From NCBI GenBank assembly GCA_018694115.1, contig JABHNB010000009.1, positions 1 through 11,115 of the forward strand: a stretch of 11,115 nucleotides of DNA. The letters run 5' to 3'. Positions 2,423 through 11,115 of the stretch are shown in pieces. Position 1 is the stretch's first letter, and each line of letters starts with the position of its first letter. The DNA is from an archaeon (GTDB taxonomy: Archaea > Nanobdellota > Nanobdellia > Pacearchaeales > GW2011-AR1). Both the position numbers and the translations under genes were made by a program. The notes below the pieces were generated by a model. It saw only the letters and a program-made list of their open reading frames with translations, did not search any database and had not been told where the DNA came from.

Positions 2423-2767
2423 CTAATCCTTATACATCCACAACACTAAAGGCATAACCGCCTCACTCTTCAACCCCTTAACCATCTTCATTAAATCCTC
2501 GTGGCTTCTACAGAACATCAATCTATATGAAAACGAAGATCTTTTTTCTTTCAGTATTGGGAATTCTTCTACAATTTCTCTTTTTAATCTTAGCATATTC
2601 CATGATTGAAAACTCTCTGCATAAGATATTTTACCCTCGATATCTATTACCGTTTTTGGTGTCAGTGGTTTTCTTTCCATAATGGATTCCCACCACCTCT
2701 TCGTTAATAGTATTAAGATACAGTTTTTATTAAATGCTCGCGTGGTGATTCTTTGACTATAGTGCAA
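2423..2767 (-). CDS. Small hypothetical protein, 114 aa as tracked. A more plausible start is ATG 2680..2678 (MERKPLTPKTVIDIEGK..., about 85 aa).
   Basis: It is the only long ORF in an otherwise gene-free 390-bp interval. The first 29 codons run into the Lrp promoter/TATA region, which favours the internal start. No family recognised. Confidence 0.4.
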   Translation of the reverse strand: MHYSQRITTRAFNKNCILILLTKRWWESIMERKPLTPKTVIDIEGKISYAESFQSWNMLRLKREIVEEFPILKEKRSSFSYRLMFCRSHEDLMKMVKGLKSEAVMPLVLWMYKD

Positions 2768-2770
2768 AGA

Positions 2771-2778
2771 TTTAAAAG
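2771..2778 (+). promoter_or_regulatory. TATA-like box tttaaaag for the Lrp-like gene, preceded by purine-rich aaaga (BRE-like).
   Basis: The box ends 22 bp before ATG 2800, consistent with a leaderless or short-leader archaeal promoter. Confidence 0.4.
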
Positions 2779-2799
2779 ATAGTCCCGTTTTTGTCTTAA

Positions 2800-3792
2800 A
2801 TGAAAGATTTTGCGGAATCCAACCTTTCTTTGAGGGAAAGGAAAGTGTTGAAGGAACTTGATGTGAATGCTCGGCAGGGTATTTCTTCGATTGGGAGTAA
2901 GTTGAAGATTTCGAAGCAGGCGGTTAATTATCATATTGAGAAGATGATTCGGAAGGGTTTTATTAAGGAGTTTATTACTTATTTTGATACGAATAAGTTG
3001 GGGTATACGTTTTATAATATTGTGATTAAGTTGAAGTATACGACGAAGGAAGATCGGAAAAAAATTGTTGATAAATTGAAGGGGATTTCTAATGTGGTTT
3101 GGGTTGCTTCTTTTAGGGGCGAGTATCAGATGATTGTTTCGATTTTGGCTAAGGATGTTGGAGAGTTTAGTTTTTATCTCGAGGAGGTTTTGCATTCGTT
3201 AAAGGGGAAGCTGTTGGATTATAATTTCTTTATTGTGATTAGTGCTTCGCAGTTGGGTTATAAGAAAATTCATAGTGGGACTAAGAGTAAATATAATTAT
3301 GATGCTATGATTGGGCACAAGGACTTGGCTCGTCTTTCGGGGAATGATTTGAAGGTGTTGAAGATTATTGCAAATAATGCGAAGATGTCGATTGTTGATA
3401 TTGCGAAGAGGACTGGGTTGACTATTGAGAAGGCGAGGTATTCTTTGAAGAAGATGGAAAAGGAGAAGATTATTCAGGGATATAAGCCGTTGGTGGATGT
3501 TGCTCGGTTGGGTTATCTTTGGCATGTTATGTTTTTGAGATTGAAGTCTTCTAGTGCGGCGGAGAAGGAGAAGATGATTAGTTTTTTGAAGAGTTTCCCC
3601 GAGGTTTTTTATGTTGTTAGGGGAGTTGGTAATTGTAATTTGATGGTTGAGTTTCAGACGAAGACTTTGGATGAGTTTGAGAGGGTTAAGGATAAGGTTT
3701 CTAATGAGTTTAGTGGATTGATTGCCGACGAGAAGACAGTACAGTTGATTGAGGAGCATAAGTGTACTTATTTTCCCGGGAGTTTGGGGTAG
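2800..3792 (+). CDS. Lrp/AsnC-family regulator with two tandem HTH+RAM modules in one 330-aa chain.
   Basis: Module 1: LRERKVLKELDVNARQGISSIGSKLKISKQAVNYHIEKMIRKGFIKEF. Module 2: LSGNDLKVLKIIANNAKMSIVDIAKRTGLTIEKARYSLKKMEKEKIIQGY. Each is followed by a roughly 80-aa RAM-like segment. The coding strand has a strong G>C skew. Confidence 0.8.
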   Translation: MKDFAESNLSLRERKVLKELDVNARQGISSIGSKLKISKQAVNYHIEKMIRKGFIKEFITYFDTNKLGYTFYNIVIKLKYTTKEDRKKIVDKLKGISNVVWVASFRGEYQMIVSILAKDVGEFSFYLEEVLHSLKGKLLDYNFFIVISASQLGYKKIHSGTKSKYNYDAMIGHKDLARLSGNDLKVLKIIANNAKMSIVDIAKRTGLTIEKARYSLKKMEKEKIIQGYKPLVDVARLGYLWHVMFLRLKSSSAAEKEKMISFLKSFPEVFYVVRGVGNCNLMVEFQTKTLDEFERVKDKVSNEFSGLIADEKTVQLIEEHKCTYFPGSLG

Positions 3793-3852: not shown

Positions 3853-4530
3853 TTACGGCCTGTTATGACAATGCGGTCGGTGGTGATGGTCTATTTGTTT
3901 CAAATGCCCTGCACTCCATTGGTAATTGTTTCCGTCTGGGGATTGGACATAGATTTTATCAAGATCAGCTTCTCTGATGTTTTTTGCTCCCCGAAGATCT
4001 GTATTAACAAGTCTCGCCCATTGAAACTCGGCCCCGTCAAGATTAGCCCCTCTAAGATCGGCCCCGTCAAGATTCGTACCCAAAAATAGCGCATATTTAA
4101 GATTTGCATTTCTAAGATTTGCATCTCTAAGGTTTGCGTCATAAAAATGTGTCTTTGTAAGATTTGCTTTGTAAAAGTTTGCTCCCCTAAGGTTTGCGGC
4201 AAAAAAGTCTGCCCCATAAAGATTTGCTCCCCTAAAGTTTGCTTCTTCAATGCTTGCGTTTCTAAATTTTGTATTATTGTAGCTTACATCCGGATCCTTA
4301 CAGTCTGTTGGTTCTAGGTTTGCAAAGGAAAAATTAGCTCCATTTAGATTTGCTCCCCAAAAATTTTTTGTAAAGTTTTTCTTTTCAAAGTTTGCTCCTT
4401 CGAGATTTGCTCCCCTAAAGTTTGTCCCTGTAAGCTCAATATCATTTACCTTTCTGAAATCTGTTCCTCGAAGATCAGCTCCTTCAAGATTTGAACGGGG
4501 TTCAATTTTGTATGTTTTTTTTATTTCCAT
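3853..4530 (-). CDS. Pentapeptide-repeat protein, 225 aa.
   Basis: Repeated A(N/D)L(x)x units throughout (ANLEGANFEKKNF, GANLNGANFSFANL, ANLRDANLRNANLKYALFLGTNLDGADLRGANLDGAEF). The C-terminus is His/Cys-rich (HHHRPHCH). Confidence 0.85.
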   Translation of the reverse strand: MEIKKTYKIEPRSNLEGADLRGTDFRKVNDIELTGTNFRGANLEGANFEKKNFTKNFWGANLNGANFSFANLEPTDCKDPDVSYNNTKFRNASIEEANFRGANLYGADFFAANLRGANFYKANLTKTHFYDANLRDANLRNANLKYALFLGTNLDGADLRGANLDGAEFQWARLVNTDLRGAKNIREADLDKIYVQSPDGNNYQWSAGHLKQIDHHHRPHCHNRP

Positions 4531-4622: not shown

Positions 4623-5390
4623 ATGGAAGAAAGATTTGAGGAAATTTTGACAAAAATTGGTTTAACGGTTCCGGAATCACGAACGTATCTTGGGTTGTTG
4701 AAATTAAAAGAAAGTCAGACTGGGCAACTTTGTAAGTTAACGGGAATAGCGTCTTCGAATATTTATAAGGTTCTTGATAGTTTAGTTGAGAGGGGTCTTG
4801 CTGGTTACAAGTTGAAGAATAATGTTAAGGTGTTTATGGCGTCGCCTCCTGAAATTTTAAAGGAGCTTTTTGTGGAACGTGAGAGGAAGTTGAGAGAAGA
4901 AGAAAAAGAGGTTGCTGATATGATTAAAAATTTGAAGAAGCCAAATGATGCTCCAGCGCCTTATGCTAATTACAAGTATTTTGAGGGGATTTCTGGGGCG
5001 AAGGCGATGTGGCTTGAATTTGCGGATTATGATTCTAAGGATGATTATGCTGTGGCGAAGATTTATAGTCAGAAGAAAGAGGCGTATGGAGCTATTGTCG
5101 GGTTTTATGATGAGTGTCATAAGGTTTATGGGAAATTGGGGCGCCGATATAAAATAATTCTTCCGTTTGAGGACGAGGCTCTAGGGAAGAAGAGAAAAAA
5201 GGTCGGTAAGGGGTTTGAGATTAAATATGCTGATTTTAAAAATGAGGCTGAGTGGGGTGTGAGGGGTGATAAACTTTATATTCAGACAACTACTGGAAAG
5301 TTGCCCGTTTCTTTCTTAATCAATAATGCGAAAATTGCTAAGACGTTTGAGCAGGTTTTTGATGATGCTTGGAGGCATGCCAAGAAGTGA
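4623..5390 (+). CDS. TrmB-family transcriptional regulator, 255 aa.
   Basis: N-terminus MEERFEEILTKIGLTVPESRTYLGLLKLKESQTGQLCKLTGIASSNIYKVLDSLVERGLAGY matches the TrmB winged-HTH. The C-terminal half aligns with the paralog at 246..992. Confidence 0.85.
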   Translation: MEERFEEILTKIGLTVPESRTYLGLLKLKESQTGQLCKLTGIASSNIYKVLDSLVERGLAGYKLKNNVKVFMASPPEILKELFVERERKLREEEKEVADMIKNLKKPNDAPAPYANYKYFEGISGAKAMWLEFADYDSKDDYAVAKIYSQKKEAYGAIVGFYDECHKVYGKLGRRYKIILPFEDEALGKKRKKVGKGFEIKYADFKNEAEWGVRGDKLYIQTTTGKLPVSFLINNAKIAKTFEQVFDDAWRHAKK

Positions 5391-6533: not shown

Positions 6534-9473
6534 CTATTTTTGGGCGTTTTTAGCGAATTTTACAACTCTGCCTAATTTCGCTCTAAGATATCTTGGATCA
6601 ATTGCGACACCAAAATTCTTGTATTTTTTTATCTTATTTCTATTAGTCACCACAAAAAACCACTTCTCATAATTCTTATTTAGAGACCCTACCTTTTCTC
6701 TCAATTGATTGGGAGATTTCTCCAAAACAGTCCCCGTCTCAATCTCAATTGCATACTCCTTGCCCGCAATCTTGAAAACAACGTCTGGCTTTTTAGTTGT
6801 ATACAGTTGTGTCTCAATTCCGTTCTTCTCTAAAAACTCTGAGATATTATGGGTCATAAAAAGGTGCATCAAACTTTCATTGTGTCTTGGTTGCAAAAGA
6901 AAGTCCTCCATCTTATCTGTCAGTAAACTTTTGTATTTCATAATTTTATATCCTTCGCCTAAAAGAAGCTCAACTTCATCCTTTTTCAAATCTTTCTTGT
7001 GAAAAAATCTTTTGTTTGGATTAATTCTTATGTCAACTTTTTTCTGTGGCTTTTTATTTTTCTTAATTATATTTAACTCATCAGGATTAGTTGTAATTAA
7101 TTTGTGTTCTGCAGGCGATGCAATAACTTTCAATTCTGAATGGTCATCTTCCATCATCAATAGGCCCTCTCCAATATTCGAAGTTAACAGATGGACTCTT
7201 TCTCCTTCGCTTAGATGAAAGGTCTTGCAAATATTATCAATGACTGCGGGCTTTTGTTTCATTAGAACTGTATATGCAGAATTTGCAAGGACCGATTTCC
7301 CGGCTTTAGAATCCAATAGCCCTTCAACTTCTTGATTGATTAAGAGAAGTCCAAGATTAAACTTTCTACAAGTTTTTACAATCTCAAAAATATATCCTGC
7401 TTCTTCTGTTTTGGAAAGTAGAGACCAGGCTTCATCAATTAATAATATCTTTCTGTCTAGATTAGATTTCATTTTCATATAGATATAATCTAAGACTAGA
7501 AACATGACTGAGGGTTTAACTTGTGAAGGGAGATTTCCTATGTCAAAGCAAACTAAGTTATTATCGAAATCTAAATTAGTTTGTCTATTCATGAAGCTAA
7601 ATACTCCGTTGACATACATCTCAAGACGGCTAGATAGACTACTAATTGTGGCTTGCTCTAATTTCGGTGAGCCAACTCTCATTTCCATTAAACTTTGCAT
7701 TAAATCCCCTAAGATTGGGGGCTTATTGTTCCAGCTATCTGGGTTGTTTGTAATTCCCTTTAATTTATAGGTTCTACTTATTGCTTTATCGATTAAGGCT
7801 CGCTGAATGTCAGTTAAATCCCCGAGCATGACCTTCATGAGGTCTATTAGAGATAATCGCTTCTCTATGTAGTCGTGGCCCATCAAATCTAGCGGATTGA
7901 TGATTGTCTCGGAATCTCTGGAAAGATCGATTCTCTGCCCTTTAAAATGCGACACAAGGCTACCATATTCCCCCTGTGGGTCGATTACCATAACCTTTGT
8001 ACCGTTGAGTAGATACCTTGTTATTAGTAGCTTACAAAAATATGATTTACCTCCACCCGATTGGGCCAGAACTATCCCGTTTGGGTTTGATAAATTAAAT
8101 ATGTCTTTTATGATTGGAATGTTGTTCTTGTTTAGTCCAAGCCACACCCCAGTTTCATCAAATTTTGAGAAGGATGAAGTGAATGGAAAGAAGGCAGAAA
8201 GAGCAGGAGTTGTTATATTCCTATTTATTCCTAGAAAGTTTTTTGCCAATGGTAGACACGACTTGAGTCCTTCCAGCATTCTGAAAATTGGCTTTCTTGG
8301 GATTATCAACAAGGAGTTTAATTCGGATTCTATTTTTCTTGTTAGTAGGTTCAGTTCTTTTAGGCTGTCTGCTCGGCAGTTGATGTATAAACTAACATCA
8401 AATAATTTTTCGTTTCCTTTTTGCAAGTTGGACAGGATCGCTCTTGTATCCTGATATTTGATTTCTAGGCTTGGATTAAGTTGGTTCTTTAGTTTTGCTG
8501 CGTATAGATCTGCTCTTTGTTTTTGTAATTCTCGATTTAGAAGAATTAGGGTTTGTTCTATTTGATGAGGGTTAATGTGTAATGAAAAATCAAAATCTCC
8601 AGAACAGCTTACAAGTTTGTCAAGAAATCCATTTTCAACTGATCTAGGATAACCGTAAGCATAGATTATTTTGTGGAATTTCCCATCGATGTCTAGGAAA
8701 TCTGGAGAGTTTTTTATTTTGTCGGGATAAATATCTGATTTTTTATTATTGAATATTTTAATGAAGATTCTTTTTAGTTTATTATTGTGTAATCTAGAAG
8801 TCTTGAGATTCAAGCTATGGAGTCTATCTTCGCATAGTTTTATCTGAATATTTATGTCGCTTGTTTCGGGAATGACCACGTAGAAATTTCGATTCATTGC
8901 ACTATTGTCTTCAACTAAACTTTTCATATGATTTTTATAAGAGTCAAACATTTCCACATGTTCATCTTTGACCATCTTATCTTTTAGGATGTTCAAATAA
9001 GAATTCAAATTGAGAGTTTCGGTTGTCATTAAAATTTGAACTGGAAAATCTATTGAGTTGAGAAACTTTTGGAAAGCATAGCCTATGGCTTCTTTTTCCT
9101 TTAAGGTTTTAATAGAAAAATTTATTGATTCTACTTTCACAACTGCAATCCTTTTTTTATTATGATGAATTAAATTATCTTTGATTTCTCCCAAGACTAG
9201 AGCCTTTTCTAACTTTTCTTTTGTATCTAGATTTCTAGTTTTTAACCAGGTATACCAGTTTTTCAGATGAGTTGATAGATCAAAAAACATAAATCCTACC
9301 GCTAGAACAGATGGAATTGATGCGAGAAAAATACGAACTACGAGGCTTGCCTGTATTTTAAACAATAAAGGAAAAATAATTGGAAAGAATATCATGGCAT
9401 AAGCTATTTGTCCGAATGTAAGTCCAAAAACAATTTTCTCTTTATATTCTAATTGCTGGGGTATCTCATACAT
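6534..9473 (-). CDS. Membrane-anchored VirB4/TrbE/CedB-like DNA-transfer ATPase with an extra C-terminal nuclease-fold-like domain, 979 aa.
   Basis: N-terminal hydrophobic helices (aa 14-65, IVFGLTFGQIAYAMIFFPIIFPLLF...VLAVGFMFF). Walker A VLAQSGGGKSYF (aa 468-479, nt about 8040-8070). Walker B ILLIDEAWSLL (aa 676-686, nt about 7420-7450) with the VirB4-type DEAW. C-terminal aa about 835-979 (nt 6537-6971) carry FLEKNGI...KPDVVF...GKEYAIEIE, resembling Hjc / PD-(D/E)xK motif spacing. Confidence 0.85.
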   Translation of the reverse strand: MYEIPQQLEYKEKIVFGLTFGQIAYAMIFFPIIFPLLFKIQASLVVRIFLASIPSVLAVGFMFFDLSTHLKNWYTWLKTRNLDTKEKLEKALVLGEIKDNLIHHNKKRIAVVKVESINFSIKTLKEKEAIGYAFQKFLNSIDFPVQILMTTETLNLNSYLNILKDKMVKDEHVEMFDSYKNHMKSLVEDNSAMNRNFYVVIPETSDINIQIKLCEDRLHSLNLKTSRLHNNKLKRIFIKIFNNKKSDIYPDKIKNSPDFLDIDGKFHKIIYAYGYPRSVENGFLDKLVSCSGDFDFSLHINPHQIEQTLILLNRELQKQRADLYAAKLKNQLNPSLEIKYQDTRAILSNLQKGNEKLFDVSLYINCRADSLKELNLLTRKIESELNSLLIIPRKPIFRMLEGLKSCLPLAKNFLGINRNITTPALSAFFPFTSSFSKFDETGVWLGLNKNNIPIIKDIFNLSNPNGIVLAQSGGGKSYFCKLLITRYLLNGTKVMVIDPQGEYGSLVSHFKGQRIDLSRDSETIINPLDLMGHDYIEKRLSLIDLMKVMLGDLTDIQRALIDKAISRTYKLKGITNNPDSWNNKPPILGDLMQSLMEMRVGSPKLEQATISSLSSRLEMYVNGVFSFMNRQTNLDFDNNLVCFDIGNLPSQVKPSVMFLVLDYIYMKMKSNLDRKILLIDEAWSLLSKTEEAGYIFEIVKTCRKFNLGLLLINQEVEGLLDSKAGKSVLANSAYTVLMKQKPAVIDNICKTFHLSEGERVHLLTSNIGEGLLMMEDDHSELKVIASPAEHKLITTNPDELNIIKKNKKPQKKVDIRINPNKRFFHKKDLKKDEVELLLGEGYKIMKYKSLLTDKMEDFLLQPRHNESLMHLFMTHNISEFLEKNGIETQLYTTKKPDVVFKIAGKEYAIEIETGTVLEKSPNQLREKVGSLNKNYEKWFFVVTNRNKIKKYKNFGVAIDPRYLRAKLGRVVKFAKNAQK

Positions 9474-9474
9474 C

Positions 9475-10290
9475 TTACGACATCACTCCTGCAACTTGCT
9501 TAACACTAGCGACAGTGTTCGCCGCCTTGAATATGACGAATAGGATTAGAAATAAAGTTCCTAAATTGGCTAATGTAAAGGCCCCGATCATGACTACAAT
9601 TTTCATATTACTAAAAACTTCCAACTCTACGAATTTTGATGAGGCTAGAAATACGATTGCATAAAAGAACGGTAGGGCCATCACGACGAATAGATAATTC
9701 ATGATTAGTTTTCCGTATTGATTTAGTGGGTCGATGAAGTAGAAGAAAATTCCTAGGGCAAAAAAGACGACCCCCATCCCTACACAAAGATATCTAAGGA
9801 CTAGAAAAATTAGGGTGACAACTAGGGTTAATATGTATGGTATAATCAAAACTAATTCTAATCCGATGTTGCTAACGCCATCCATTGTTACCAGGAAGAA
9901 CTCGTCTCCAATCATGTTGAAAATTACTGTCGTTACCGATGATATTACTTCGAGGATTAGCTTGTATAAGAAAAAACTTGTTTGGATTAATACCATCATG
10001 AGGATCGTATTTGCCAAACTTCTCTTTGCCTTTTCTCTTTGTTCCGGGGAATGTCCTGCCAATAAGAATCTGAATCCTACAATTAAGAGAAGTATACCAT
10101 AAAATAAAGATAAGATGTAAACTATAATTGACCAGACCCCTGCGAAGATTTCGACGTTGACTGGTTGAGTCAATAGGTTGTCGATCATGCTAAGCAGGGG
10201 CCTAACTGGCAGATTTAAAATATAAATTACAAACTCAAAAAACTTCTCAACAAGACAGGCTCCGAGATTGGTTATTCCGCAAGAACTCAT
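9475..10290 (-). CDS. Polytopic integral membrane protein, 271 aa with about 7 predicted TM helices. VirB6/TrbL/CedA-like channel-component candidate.
   Basis: Hydrophobic throughout, with short polar loops. The stop lies 1 nt before the ATPase ATG (9473). The start overlaps the upstream stop (ATGA at 10287-10290). The assignment is by topology and operon context, not by motif. Confidence 0.65.
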   Translation of the reverse strand: MSSCGITNLGACLVEKFFEFVIYILNLPVRPLLSMIDNLLTQPVNVEIFAGVWSIIVYILSLFYGILLLIVGFRFLLAGHSPEQREKAKRSLANTILMMVLIQTSFFLYKLILEVISSVTTVIFNMIGDEFFLVTMDGVSNIGLELVLIIPYILTLVVTLIFLVLRYLCVGMGVVFFALGIFFYFIDPLNQYGKLIMNYLFVVMALPFFYAIVFLASSKFVELEVFSNMKIVVMIGAFTLANLGTLFLILFVIFKAANTVASVKQVAGVMS

Positions 10291-11115
10291 AGTAAACTAA
10301 ATGAAAGATAATATTTCTTCAGGAAGCTGTAGATTATGTATCCGAAGAAACTAATAGATGAAAGTTCTTTTAGGAATACCTCGTTTTTCTCGTCGGTGAC
10401 ACTAATAAATTTCTTTACCTTTCTTGTATTTAGTTGGGCCTCAATTCTGTTCTCGTCTTTTACTGCTTTGAATTCTGCGAAATCCTCTGCTAAGATATTT
10501 TTTCCTGCATAAGTTAAGTTTAGCTCTATGCCTTTTGGGAAAATCTCAATTAGGATAGTTTCATTTTCGTAATAATACAGTTGATCTGCTTCAATTTCAA
10601 AATCAACTTTGCTATAACTTAAATCGCAACCCCTTGAGATGCTTCCGAAGTGATTAAAGAGTTTTATTTTGCAGTTTGAAGCGTCTTTTACGACGAACTC
10701 GAATTTGTTTGCGGATTCATCAACATGAATATTTTGGACTTTTGTATTTTCAATTCTTTCCGCTTGGAGTGTTAGAATGTAGTGAGGCAAAGTGTAGTTG
10801 AGTTTGTAGATGTAATTTGTTCTTTGGTATAATGAGTTGGTGAAGCTTAGCTCTAATGCGCTGACATTATTTGTTTTTAGATATCCTTCTATGTTATCGC
10901 TGTATTGATTTATTATTTTGAAAGAACTTTCTGTGCTTGAATTATGTAGCTTTGCGTTAACAGTGTCTGAAATTTTTACTGTGTGGGTTACGTAGTCTCG
11001 ATAGTCATATCTACATCTGCTTTCTCTCCATCGATAATGTTCTACTTTATACCTAACTTTAATTTCTAATTCTGCTGTTAGAACTACATCTTCGCTGTTT
11101 GCTACGAAACTTGTT
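10287..11115 (-). CDS. Partial CDS (5' end beyond the window) for a non-globular, beta-rich protein with a C-terminal hydrophobic anchor (ISFFGYIIYSFLKKYYLSFSLL). First gene of the transfer operon within the window.
   Basis: The ORF-track entry 10287..10790 begins at a TTG. Manual translation shows the same frame stays open with no stop up to 11114 (...TSFVANSEDVVLTAELEIKVRYKVEHYRWRESRCRYDYRDYVTHTVKISD...), so the gene continues off the window. Confidence 0.6.
   Translation of the reverse strand, partial: TSFVANSEDVVLTAELEIKVRYKVEHYRWRESRCRYDYRDYVTHTVKISDTVNAKLHNSSTESSFKIINQYSDNIEGYLKTNNVSALELSFTNSLYQRTNYIYKLNYTLPHYILTLQAERIENTKVQNIHVDESANKFEFVVKDASNCKIKLFNHFGSISRGCDLSYSKVDFEIEADQLYYYENETILIEIFPKGIELNLTYAGKNILAEDFAEFKAVKDENRIEAQLNTRKVKKFISVTDEKNEVFLKELSSISFFGYIIYSFLKKYYLSFSLL

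Follow-up and report, generated by a model that had tools for sequence, protein, structure and literature searches.

Motors of the VirB4 type power archaeal plasmids, thaumarchaeal elements and the Ced and Ted systems, but no DNA-preparing enzyme has been identified for any of them (PMC12857230, PMC9905601, PMC6563490). No relaxase is known from archaeal conjugative plasmids or from thaumarchaeal integrative-conjugative elements (PMC12857230 section 23; PMC9905601; PMC6563490). The same holds more widely: Ted and Ced, the type IV secretion system (T4SS) of Patescibacteria and the thaumarchaeal integrative-conjugative elements have no recognisable relaxase, and the papers that describe them report no nuclease domain on VirB4 (PMC9905601, PMC12102498, PMC6563490). 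A 2025 review of T4SSs describes no nuclease domain on VirB4 and states that archaeal systems are without a recognisable relaxase. A 'restriction endonuclease' was once claimed for the giant SPEARE/VirB4-like proteins of Nanohaloarchaeota and was later rejected (PMC10266531). In bacteria, the MOBC relaxases TraX and MobC are PD-(D/E)xK enzymes (PMC12857230); TraX has an extra N-terminal DNA-binding domain, and no covalent DNA intermediate has been observed (PMC12857230, section 17). Here we analyse an 11,115-nucleotide stretch of DNA from an archaeon of the order Pacearchaeales (contig JABHNB010000009.1 of assembly GCA_018694115.1; hereafter the window), in which a VirB4 gene continues, beyond the ATPase, into a domain with the predicted fold of PD-(D/E)xK nucleases (hereafter the tail). 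The reading we favour, to which we give a probability of roughly one half, is that the tail is an active, metal-dependent endonuclease that is tethered to the motor, processes the transferred DNA and stands in for the relaxase. Targeted full-text literature searches on VirB4 and nuclease, on DPANN and on archaeal conjugation returned no description of a VirB4-PD-(D/E)xK fusion, in keeping with the initial annotation of this DNA, whose author knew of no such arrangement.

A nuclease-fold domain on the VirB4 ATPase

The protein is made up of the following parts (window positions; residue numbers in brackets):

6534-9473, minus strand: whole gene, with VirB3/PrgI-like anchor, VirB4 ATPase and nuclease-like tail; 979 residues plus stop codon, the longest gene of the window
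9234-9473, minus strand: VirB3/PrgI-like N-terminus with two transmembrane helices (residues 1-80); from Pfam PrgI, the full-length model and hydropathy
8154-9191, minus strand: VirB4 N-terminal domain (residues 95-440); from NCBIfam VirB4 profiles, the source annotation (PF26593, TraC-like) and the full-length model
7089-8105, minus strand: VirB4 P-loop ATPase domain (residues 457-795); from Pfam P-loop_TraG, with Walker A AQSGGGKSY at 8040-8066
7038-7088, minus strand: basic, poorly conserved linker NPDELNIIKKNKKPQKK (residues 796-812); low predicted local distance difference test score (pLDDT), variable among orthologues
6894-7037, minus strand: small beta-alpha-beta-beta lobe ahead of the nuclease core (residues 813-860); from the model and conservation
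6537-6893, minus strand: PD-(D/E)xK-type core, alpha-beta-beta-beta-alpha-beta-alpha, with a long C-terminal helix (residues 861-979)

By its profile matches the ATPase is a VirB4 of the bacterial monoderm type (CD1110 family), and not of the Ced type first proposed: the 979-residue protein passes the threshold of NCBIfam conju_CD1110 (327.8 bits, cutoff 325), and Pfam P-loop_TraG covers residues 461-766 (85.4 bits against a cutoff of 25.8, E 4e-24). DUF87 matches too, and both VirB4 signature motifs are present (Walker A GGGKS, Walker B LLIDEAW). At the N-terminus Pfam PrgI matches residues 4-80 below its cutoff (24.7 bits, cutoff 27), and the full-length model places helices at residues 20-38 and 44-63, with which hydropathy is consistent. 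In five related loci (L024, L068, L077, L079, L086) the PrgI/VirB3-like segment is a small gene of its own. The whole protein is identical to P0073, which occurs on 11 contigs.

The VirB4 profiles end at residue 766 (P-loop_TraG), 775 (conju_CD1110) or 806 (TraC-F-type), leaving about 170-180 residues beyond them: the initial annotation, which had noticed roughly 180 extra residues after the ATPase, was right in this respect. The peptide quoted there, NESLMHLFMTHNISEFLEKNGIETQLYTTKKPDVVFKIAGKEYAIEIETG, is found in the open reading frame at 6534-9473 (minus strand), and the numbering of D897, E910 and E912 agrees with the translation. Its interval for the domain, 6537-6971, does correspond to residues 835-979, but the conserved module begins earlier, at about residue 813 (window position 7037). 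PF26593, which is listed for all orthologues, was considered as a family for the tail and dropped: it is a 'TraC-like' family and no model of the tail.

Structure prediction indicates that the last 167 residues fold on their own, as a domain of the PD-(D/E)xK superfamily whose family is contained in none of the four profile libraries searched. The tail (residues 822-979) was modelled with AlphaFold2 from an alignment of 30 homologues, giving a mean pLDDT of 93 and a predicted template modelling score of 0.87. The model runs through a small beta-alpha-beta-beta lobe, a helix, three strands, a helix, a strand, a helix and a long terminal helix. In model numbering (E, strand; H, helix) the lobe comprises E2-4, H10-18, E22-27 and E34-39, and the elements H47-62, E67-69, E77-81, E84-91, H100-113 and E116-121 make up the core fold of the superfamily. 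The lobe is kept in fused and stand-alone copies of the tail alike, and precedes the nuclease core in every case. A full-length model (58 sequences, mean pLDDT 74.5) retains the same tail elements at pLDDT 82-92, while residues 804-812 fall below 50: the tail is thus best regarded as an independent module on a flexible basic linker. Among orthologues the linker between ATPase and tail differs in both length and sequence. The initial annotation had proposed a restriction-endonuclease-like fold and named structure prediction as the way to overturn it; the predicted model and its structural neighbours bear the proposal out, for the alpha-beta-beta-beta-alpha-beta core is there in the model and no known non-nuclease extension of VirB4 matches the tail. 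The placement of the motifs also stands, with an acidic residue opening helix 1, PD opening strand 2 and (D/E)-x-X on strand 3 of the predicted model.

Foldseek comparison of the tail model with the Protein Data Bank (PDB) gave as neighbours Cdn1, VC1899, a splicing endonuclease, the restriction enzyme OkrAI (probability 0.94, E 1.4e-2, 86 columns), XisH proteins (2inb, 2okf), the R2 endonuclease domain and Hjc; named neighbours in a viral library were an endonuclease, a restriction enzyme, a competence protein and VRR-NUC. The scores are moderate. Since unrelated three-layer folds (CheY, TIR, vWA) score only slightly lower, the fold assignment rests on the whole pattern and on no single match. 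Sequence profiles are less forthcoming: no model in Pfam, NCBIfam, PHROG or PADLOC matches the tail above threshold, and neither the tail sequence nor its profile found more than chance matches among PDB sequences (an alpha/beta hydrolase, an mRNA capping enzyme). Pfam and NCBIfam scans of the tail turned up no relaxase family, no MOBC profile being among the comparisons, and an Rfam scan of the window found nothing. The sole recurrent nuclease family in Pfam is CoiA_nuc (PF06054), which matches 22 of 30 members weakly (best E 0.0012) over the catalytic first third of the profile. All members score below threshold, the window's tail included (15.2 bits, cutoff 20.3), and the tail is therefore not assigned to CoiA.

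The initial annotation had aligned the domain by eye to the archaeal Holliday-junction resolvase Hjc. An Hjc-type enzyme fused to VirB4 would resolve recombination intermediates of the transferred DNA, and the distance from E866 to D897 (31) is indeed close to that from E12 to D42 in Hjc of S. solfataricus (30). The comparison goes no further. Many other nuclease families rank higher as structural neighbours, and profile alignment (hhalign) with Hjc of Pyrococcus furiosus yields only a 21-residue match that is out of register (E 0.11) and leaves the motifs unaligned. Pfam scans bring up no Hjc family, even with the limit relaxed to E<=10, the tail has E-x-E-T-G where Hjc has E-x-K, so that it falls outside Hjc by sequence, and neither its N-terminal lobe nor its long C-terminal helix is known from the Hjc fold. 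An Hjc-type resolvase is accordingly an extremely improbable identity for the tail.

Conservation was assessed in two sets of sequences: 191 tails, of which 119 are from VirB4 proteins and 72 from a first search with the tail, and 77 complete tail domains from genome loci (76 from a genome scan, plus the window's own copy). The candidate active site is composed of four features:

6864-6878, minus strand: E866 (6876-6878) and H870 (6864-6866) at the start of helix 1; from conservation
6783-6791, minus strand: K895-P896-D897, the 'PD' motif that opens strand 2; from conservation
6732-6746, minus strand: E910-I-E912-T913-G914, which closes strand 3 and has a BamHI-type 'ExETG' where the canonical motif has (D/E)xK; from conservation and the BamHI register
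6693-6695, minus strand: K927 on helix 2, a position that is K or R throughout and may hold a relocated catalytic lysine

Across the 191 tails D897, E910, E912 and G914 never vary, and the same four positions are unvarying in the 77 genome-locus domains (D897 in 77/77), even though pairwise identity among the latter drops to about 23%. E866 is present in all 189 ungapped sequences of the first set and in 73/77 of the second, H870 in 188/191 and 77/77, K895 in 184/191 and P896 in 186/191. Position 927 is K in 178 and R in 12 of 191 tails, and K in 70 and R in 7 of the 77. T893, T913, W938 and F940 (like H870, K895 and P896) are conserved in at least 96% of the 191 tails, and the 77 domains show the same pattern. 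In terms of the PD-(D/E)xK motif, D897 and E910 are invariant and correctly placed, and the third position is an invariant glutamate (E912) in place of the canonical lysine, a variant known from BamHI and so compatible with membership of the superfamily. A second acidic residue of helix 1, E879, was dropped as a catalytic candidate because it varies (E, N, D or K).

The initial annotation took the E-I-E as a hint that the domain might be inactive. An E-x-E is, however, catalytically competent in BamHI, and the strand is shared in detail: BamHI (sequence from PDB 1bam) reads G-P-I-D94 ... G-M-E111-F-E113-T-G-N, OkrAI (PDB 3odh) reads G-P-L-D ... A-L-E-W-E-T-G-N, and the tail reads K-P-D ... A-I-E-I-E-T-G-T. 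In a single hhalign comparison of the tail profile with BamHI plus OkrAI, P-D and ExETG come into register (E 0.0014, probability 18%, 59 columns). Of the BamHI catalytic set E77/D94/E111/E113, the last three line up with K-P-D897 and E910-I-E912-T-G; the counterpart of E77 is ambiguous, being either E866 or a residue near 882. Because BamHI and OkrAI both carry ExETG and align in register, and because E910, E912, T913 and G914 are invariant or nearly so, we read the E-I-E as BamHI-type and not as a sign of inactivity. With residues placed by the secondary structure of the predicted model, the site resembles a BamHI-type, all-acidic variant, to which K927 or K895 may supply the positive charge.

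The missing lysine could also mean that the fold has been kept for DNA binding, oligomerisation or docking and no longer cuts, as in ERCC1 and FAAP24. We regard such a non-catalytic module as very unlikely: at the positions where this fold binds metal, 268 sequences show little or no variation in four acidic residues, a histidine and a lysine, and the absence of the lysine loses its force given that E-x-E works in BamHI.

Distribution and forms of the tail

A search with the full protein gave 120 closest clusters (753-1082 residues, 56-100% identity), named Pacearchaeota, Nanoarchaeota or 'archaeon'. The tail is carried by 119 of these and is complete in 118, the exception being a truncated entry of 753 residues; the question raised in the initial annotation, whether related VirB4 proteins share the tail, is thus answered. 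A profile of the tail run against 1.84 billion proteins (clustered at 50% identity) matched 735 clusters at E<=1e-3, of which 172 also passed E<=1e-30, and many cluster representatives of intermediate length are VirB4 fragments from short contigs. The first search with the tail, which listed only proteins of up to 304 residues, gave the impression that the tail is mainly a stand-alone protein. That impression came from the way the search worked; fusion proves dominant both in the full-length search and in the genome scan. Comparison by tblastn with 72,556 plasmids and 50,697 phages gave no match to the tail.

The genome scan, restricted to one genome per species, yielded 80 loci, nearly all from genomes named Woesearchaeota, Pacearchaeota or Nanoarchaeota, plus one Iainarchaeum. 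VirB4 fusions account for 55 of the loci (59 tail-bearing open reading frames) and stand-alone copies for 24; one locus has no open reading frame with a tail. Among the fusion loci VirB4 itself may be split: the N-terminal part is a separate upstream gene in seven, and the PrgI/VirB3-like segment alone is separate in five more. VirB4-tail fusions also occur on contigs labelled bacterial (L015, L025, L054, L088; P0176), under the names Babeliales, Bdellovibrionales, Maribellus, 'bacterium' and Patescibacteria. Binning errors seem the likeliest source of these labels, cross-domain transfer being the alternative. On one Pacearchaeota contig (JAGVXH010000003.1; L012, L077, L079) three VirB4-tail operons lie within 70 kb, each with an integrase nearby, and on JAIORZ010000011.1 (L009, L011) there are two within 60 kb; such contigs suggest several related elements per genome.

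Over half of the stand-alone copies (13/24) have at their N-terminus a membrane helix, then basic residues, then a charged linker; these N-termini are unrelated to one another in sequence. By the positive-inside rule the domain of these proteins should face the cytoplasm, as it does in the VirB4 fusions, so that both architectures would hold it at the inner face of the membrane. That unrelated helices, each with a charged linker, serve the same placement makes it appear to be selected. Fused and stand-alone tails resemble each other about as closely as members of either class do: mean pairwise identity is 41% between the two classes and 41% and 45% within them, and in a distance tree the two are intermixed.

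Putative integrated elements and their conserved genes

Gene families were counted over the 55 fusion loci; the count omits three groups of antisense open reading frames within virB4, and only family representatives were annotated. The families common to at least 17 of the loci are VirB4 (55), a pilin/membrane protein (42), an N4/N6 DNA methylase (27), DUF8186 (24) and an integrase (17); type I HsdM and HsdS occur in 13 loci each. No relaxase or VirD4 family is among these conserved neighbours, although with only representatives annotated a rare or very divergent one could escape detection. The conserved module has the order (tRNA)-integrase-methylase-pilin-DUF8186-membrane protein-VirB4-tail.

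In five loci (L012, L014, L024, L042, L057) the integrase lies no more than 200 nt behind a tRNA-Asp gene, and the operon comes 1-3.5 kb further on, with everything on one strand. The same layout is found at tRNA-Glu (L045) and tRNA-Gly (L073), and thus at a minimum of seven loci in all; elements that have integrated at a tRNA gene are usually laid out in this way. At four loci the 10 kb on each side were searched for a second copy of the tRNA 3' end, which would mark the end of the element, and no distal copy was found. At L024 a local duplication of 40 nt, whose first copy (992-1031) starts within the final 12 nt of tRNA-Asp and whose second (1086-1125, 90% identical) follows 94 nt downstream, just before the integrase, may be the scar of an attachment site.

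Tyrosine integrases of the same, tRNA-targeting family also accompany many of the stand-alone tails. Of the 21 complete stand-alone domains from genome loci, 14 (and in addition the copies of L001-L004 and L007) lie at most 400 nt downstream of a tyrosine integrase of about 390 residues, on the same strand. Two of these integrases, compared across unrelated surroundings, are 58% identical (match to the phrog_1 integrase, E 3e-16), and in L021 and L040 the order is tRNA-integrase-tail. Taken with the Foldseek matches to the XisH family (2inb, 2okf), this arrangement raises the question of whether the tail is an accessory factor of the integrase, helping or controlling excision and integration as XisH does for the fdxN element, with fusion to VirB4 coupling excision to transfer. 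We consider this distinctly unlikely. The dominant form is the VirB4 fusion, in which the integrase is 1-3.5 kb away or absent from the locus; tethering to the membrane is hard to square with a cofactor of recombination; and the mixing of fused and stand-alone tails in the distance tree likewise speaks against it. Moreover, part of the adjacency may be a product of decay, since an upstream integrase on the same strand can reach the 3' end of virB4 by deletion, and relics of this kind exist. Four copies (P0021, at L005 2672-3319; P0193; P0201; P0210) consist of only the last residues of the VirB4 ATPase and the tail, and look like products of deletions in the region from integrase to virB4. P0210 has a sub-threshold Pfam match to the SAM-like N-terminal domain of integrases (23.9 bits, cutoff 27), and the N-terminus of P0201 is similar by eye. 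The diverse membrane-anchored stand-alone forms, by contrast, look like maintained genes.

The methylase, a protein of about 210 residues, is encoded divergently upstream of the pilin gene in 19 VirB4-tail loci (315-498 bits; for example L014 3895-4536, minus strand), and a weaker match lies upstream of the operon on the same strand in four more. Two roles are conceivable for it, that of a cognate partner to the tail and that of an ordinary anti-restriction methylase. If it were a partner, the tail might be a BamHI-like, sequence-specific restriction nuclease mounted on the transfer machine, with the cell's own DNA shielded by the neighbouring methylase and unmethylated incoming DNA cut; the use of such an enzyme could lie in entry exclusion, in competition between elements, or in breaking up imported host DNA so that it can be salvaged. 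The idea fits the ExETG motif, the OkrAI match in Foldseek and the presence of the methylase family in 27/55 fusion loci. It also fits the type I restriction-modification genes (HsdM, HsdS, HsdR; for example L014 10712-13446) that flank the operon: they follow VirB4 in 13 loci and precede the operon in the window's contig. Several observations nonetheless incline us to think it unlikely. The N4/N6 methylase family is absent from the window's own locus and from all but one of the 24 stand-alone-tail loci. Tails vary little (mean pairwise identity of about 41-45%), whereas restriction specificities usually diversify fast, and PADLOC has no defence model that fits the tail. Conjugative elements, furthermore, commonly carry orphan methylases and restriction cargo that are not linked to the transfer genes.

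The window's contig (L007; window position = 19474 - L007 position) shows the operon in the order TrbC-type pilin, DUF8186 protein, pilin-domain membrane protein and VirB4-tail fusion. Two of the genes upstream of virB4 fall within the window:

9475-10290, minus strand: polytopic membrane protein with a T4SS-pilin-like domain, in the usual position of VirB6, upstream of virB4; Pfam T4SS_pilin, 27.5 bits (cutoff 26.6)
10287-11114, minus strand: 3' part of the DUF8186 gene, which runs off the right window end; corresponds to L007 7991-9187, PF26589 DUF8186 (weak), frame checked

In most complete loci a homologue of the membrane protein gene stops about 25 nt or less from the VirB4 start; the BLAST family to which it belongs takes in the pilin as well and is the one present in 42/55 fusion loci. 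Upstream of the operon, past the right window end, L007 39-6998 encodes a type I restriction-modification system plus an AAA_13 ATPase. On the other side, just left of window position 1 and 6.5 kb downstream of VirB4, L007 19485-21541 encodes a tyrosine integrase of 395 residues and, after 17 nt, a paralogue of the tail. The paralogue has 283 residues, with one membrane helix and an acidic linker, and its tail is 62% identical to the VirB4 tail over 170 aligned positions. The pair of integrase and tail paralogue recurs in unrelated surroundings (L001, L003, L013 and others).

Between VirB4 and the integrase are two TrmB-family regulators, a duplicated HTH_24/AsnC regulator and a 225-residue pentapeptide-repeat protein (246-992, minus; 2800-3792, plus; 4623-5390, plus; 3853-4530, minus), together with two proteins without a family match (1086-1922 and 1885-2406). 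Opposite the gene for the double winged-helix Lrp/AsnC-type regulator (2800-3792, plus) are antisense reading frames of 160 and 186 residues (2713-3195 and 3199-3759, both minus). GC skew around them is very high (0.37-0.48), and comparable antisense frames occur within virB4 at many loci; those opposite 2800-3792 are probably artefacts of strand composition.

The proposed role and known systems

In the mechanism we favour, the tail hangs by a linker of about 17 residues, flexible and basic, on the cytoplasmic end of the VirB4 ATPase, which the fused VirB3-like segment anchors in the membrane. A VirB4 hexamer would then place six copies of the tail around the cytoplasmic mouth of the channel. 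Using metal, the tail would cut or nick the DNA presented to the motor (leaving or entering the cell), and the free end so created would be threaded through a minimal apparatus of pilin, DUF8186 protein, membrane protein at the VirB6 position and VirB3-VirB4. This apparatus is carried by integrase-bearing mobile elements of DPANN archaea of the Woese-/Pacearchaeota type. We prefer this role because the catalytic signature is invariant, because fusion is near-universal in this clade of VirB4 and because the free forms are tethered to the membrane; it is further favoured by the mobile-element setting, by the lack of another candidate for DNA processing among the conserved neighbours, and by the precedent of MOBC relaxases as PD-(D/E)xK enzymes.

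Several points weigh against it. No oriT or cleavage site came to light, in an analysis that made no search aimed at an oriT. The related systems of Patescibacteria are not proven to be conjugative. The likeness to BamHI is limited to a short stretch (hhalign probability 18%), and the profile alignment sets E77 of BamHI near the variable E882 and not near E866, which makes the catalytic partner on helix 1 uncertain. The methylase conserved beside the operon and the frequent restriction genes fit a restriction-type role equally well, and the adjacency of integrases might signify a role in recombination or the decay of elements.

A broader claim is possible but on the whole doubtful: that the tail family is the long-sought DNA-processing enzyme of archaeal conjugation, a nickase or cutter built into VirB4 and also present, anchored in the membrane, beside the integrases of small hitch-hiking elements. 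If true, it would define integrative conjugative and integrative mobilisable elements of DPANN archaea that transfer DNA with neither relaxase nor coupling protein. The loci point to an undescribed population of integrated, probably transferable elements in genomes of the Woese-/Pacearchaeota type, organisms to whose biology exchange with hosts is central. Proteins with the tail are at present annotated only as 'DUF87 domain-containing' or 'TraC', and the tail adds a family that is absent from Pfam, NCBIfam, PHROGs and PADLOC. The restriction-type reading, should it prove the correct one, would likewise bring something new: a restriction-like nuclease carried by a conduit for DNA.

Among known enzymes, BamHI and OkrAI (1bam, 3odh) share with the tail the PD-(D/E)xK fold, the E-x-E-T-G strand, a P-x-D or P-D 13-17 residues upstream of it and a further acidic residue on the preceding helix. 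This likeness extends over only some 60 residues, however, and BamHI itself is outside the top structural matches. Other differences are the smaller size of the tail, the lobe at its N-terminus and the long helix at its C-terminus, its fusion to an ATPase or to a membrane anchor, and the lack of a constant cognate methylase. CoiA (PF06054) is linked to the tail by recurrent weak profile matches and by the viral 'competence protein' among the Foldseek neighbours; it works in the cytoplasm, on DNA that a transport machine has brought in, but the scores are below cutoff and CoiA is not known to be fused to a motor. Hjc is likewise small, has the superfamily fold and carries acidic residues on helix 1 and on strands 2 and 3. 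It differs in showing no profile-level similarity to the tail, in its E-x-K as against E-x-E-T-G, and in not being known to have the extra lobe and helix, and it ranks below several restriction and CRISPR-ancillary nucleases as a structural neighbour.

Where function is concerned, the closest analogy that we propose is with the MOBC relaxases (TraX of pAD1, MobC of CloDF13), which put a PD-(D/E)xK nuclease to use in conjugation in the monoderm world. These are free-standing and work with a coupling protein, whereas the tail is built into VirB4 or anchored in the membrane, and the two are compared by fold class only. [quoted passage not shown] HerA-NurA has been discussed for the archaeal Ted and Ced systems (PMC9905601). 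As to the apparatus, Ted/Ced, the T4SS of Patescibacteria and the thaumarchaeal elements resemble the present system in their reduced set of VirB2-type pilin, VirB6-type membrane protein and VirB4; no VirB3-VirB4 fusions were found in the Patescibacteria dataset (PMC12102498), while the window's protein combines a VirB3-like N-terminus with the tail. Both the nuclease superfamily and the motor are well known; the tail family, the use of an E-x-E-T-G site outside restriction enzymes, the fusion to VirB4 and the pairing with integrases appear to be undescribed. A domain of nuclease fold with an invariant signature, carried on the motor in hundreds of DPANN lineages, is a testable candidate for the step that the described archaeal systems are missing.

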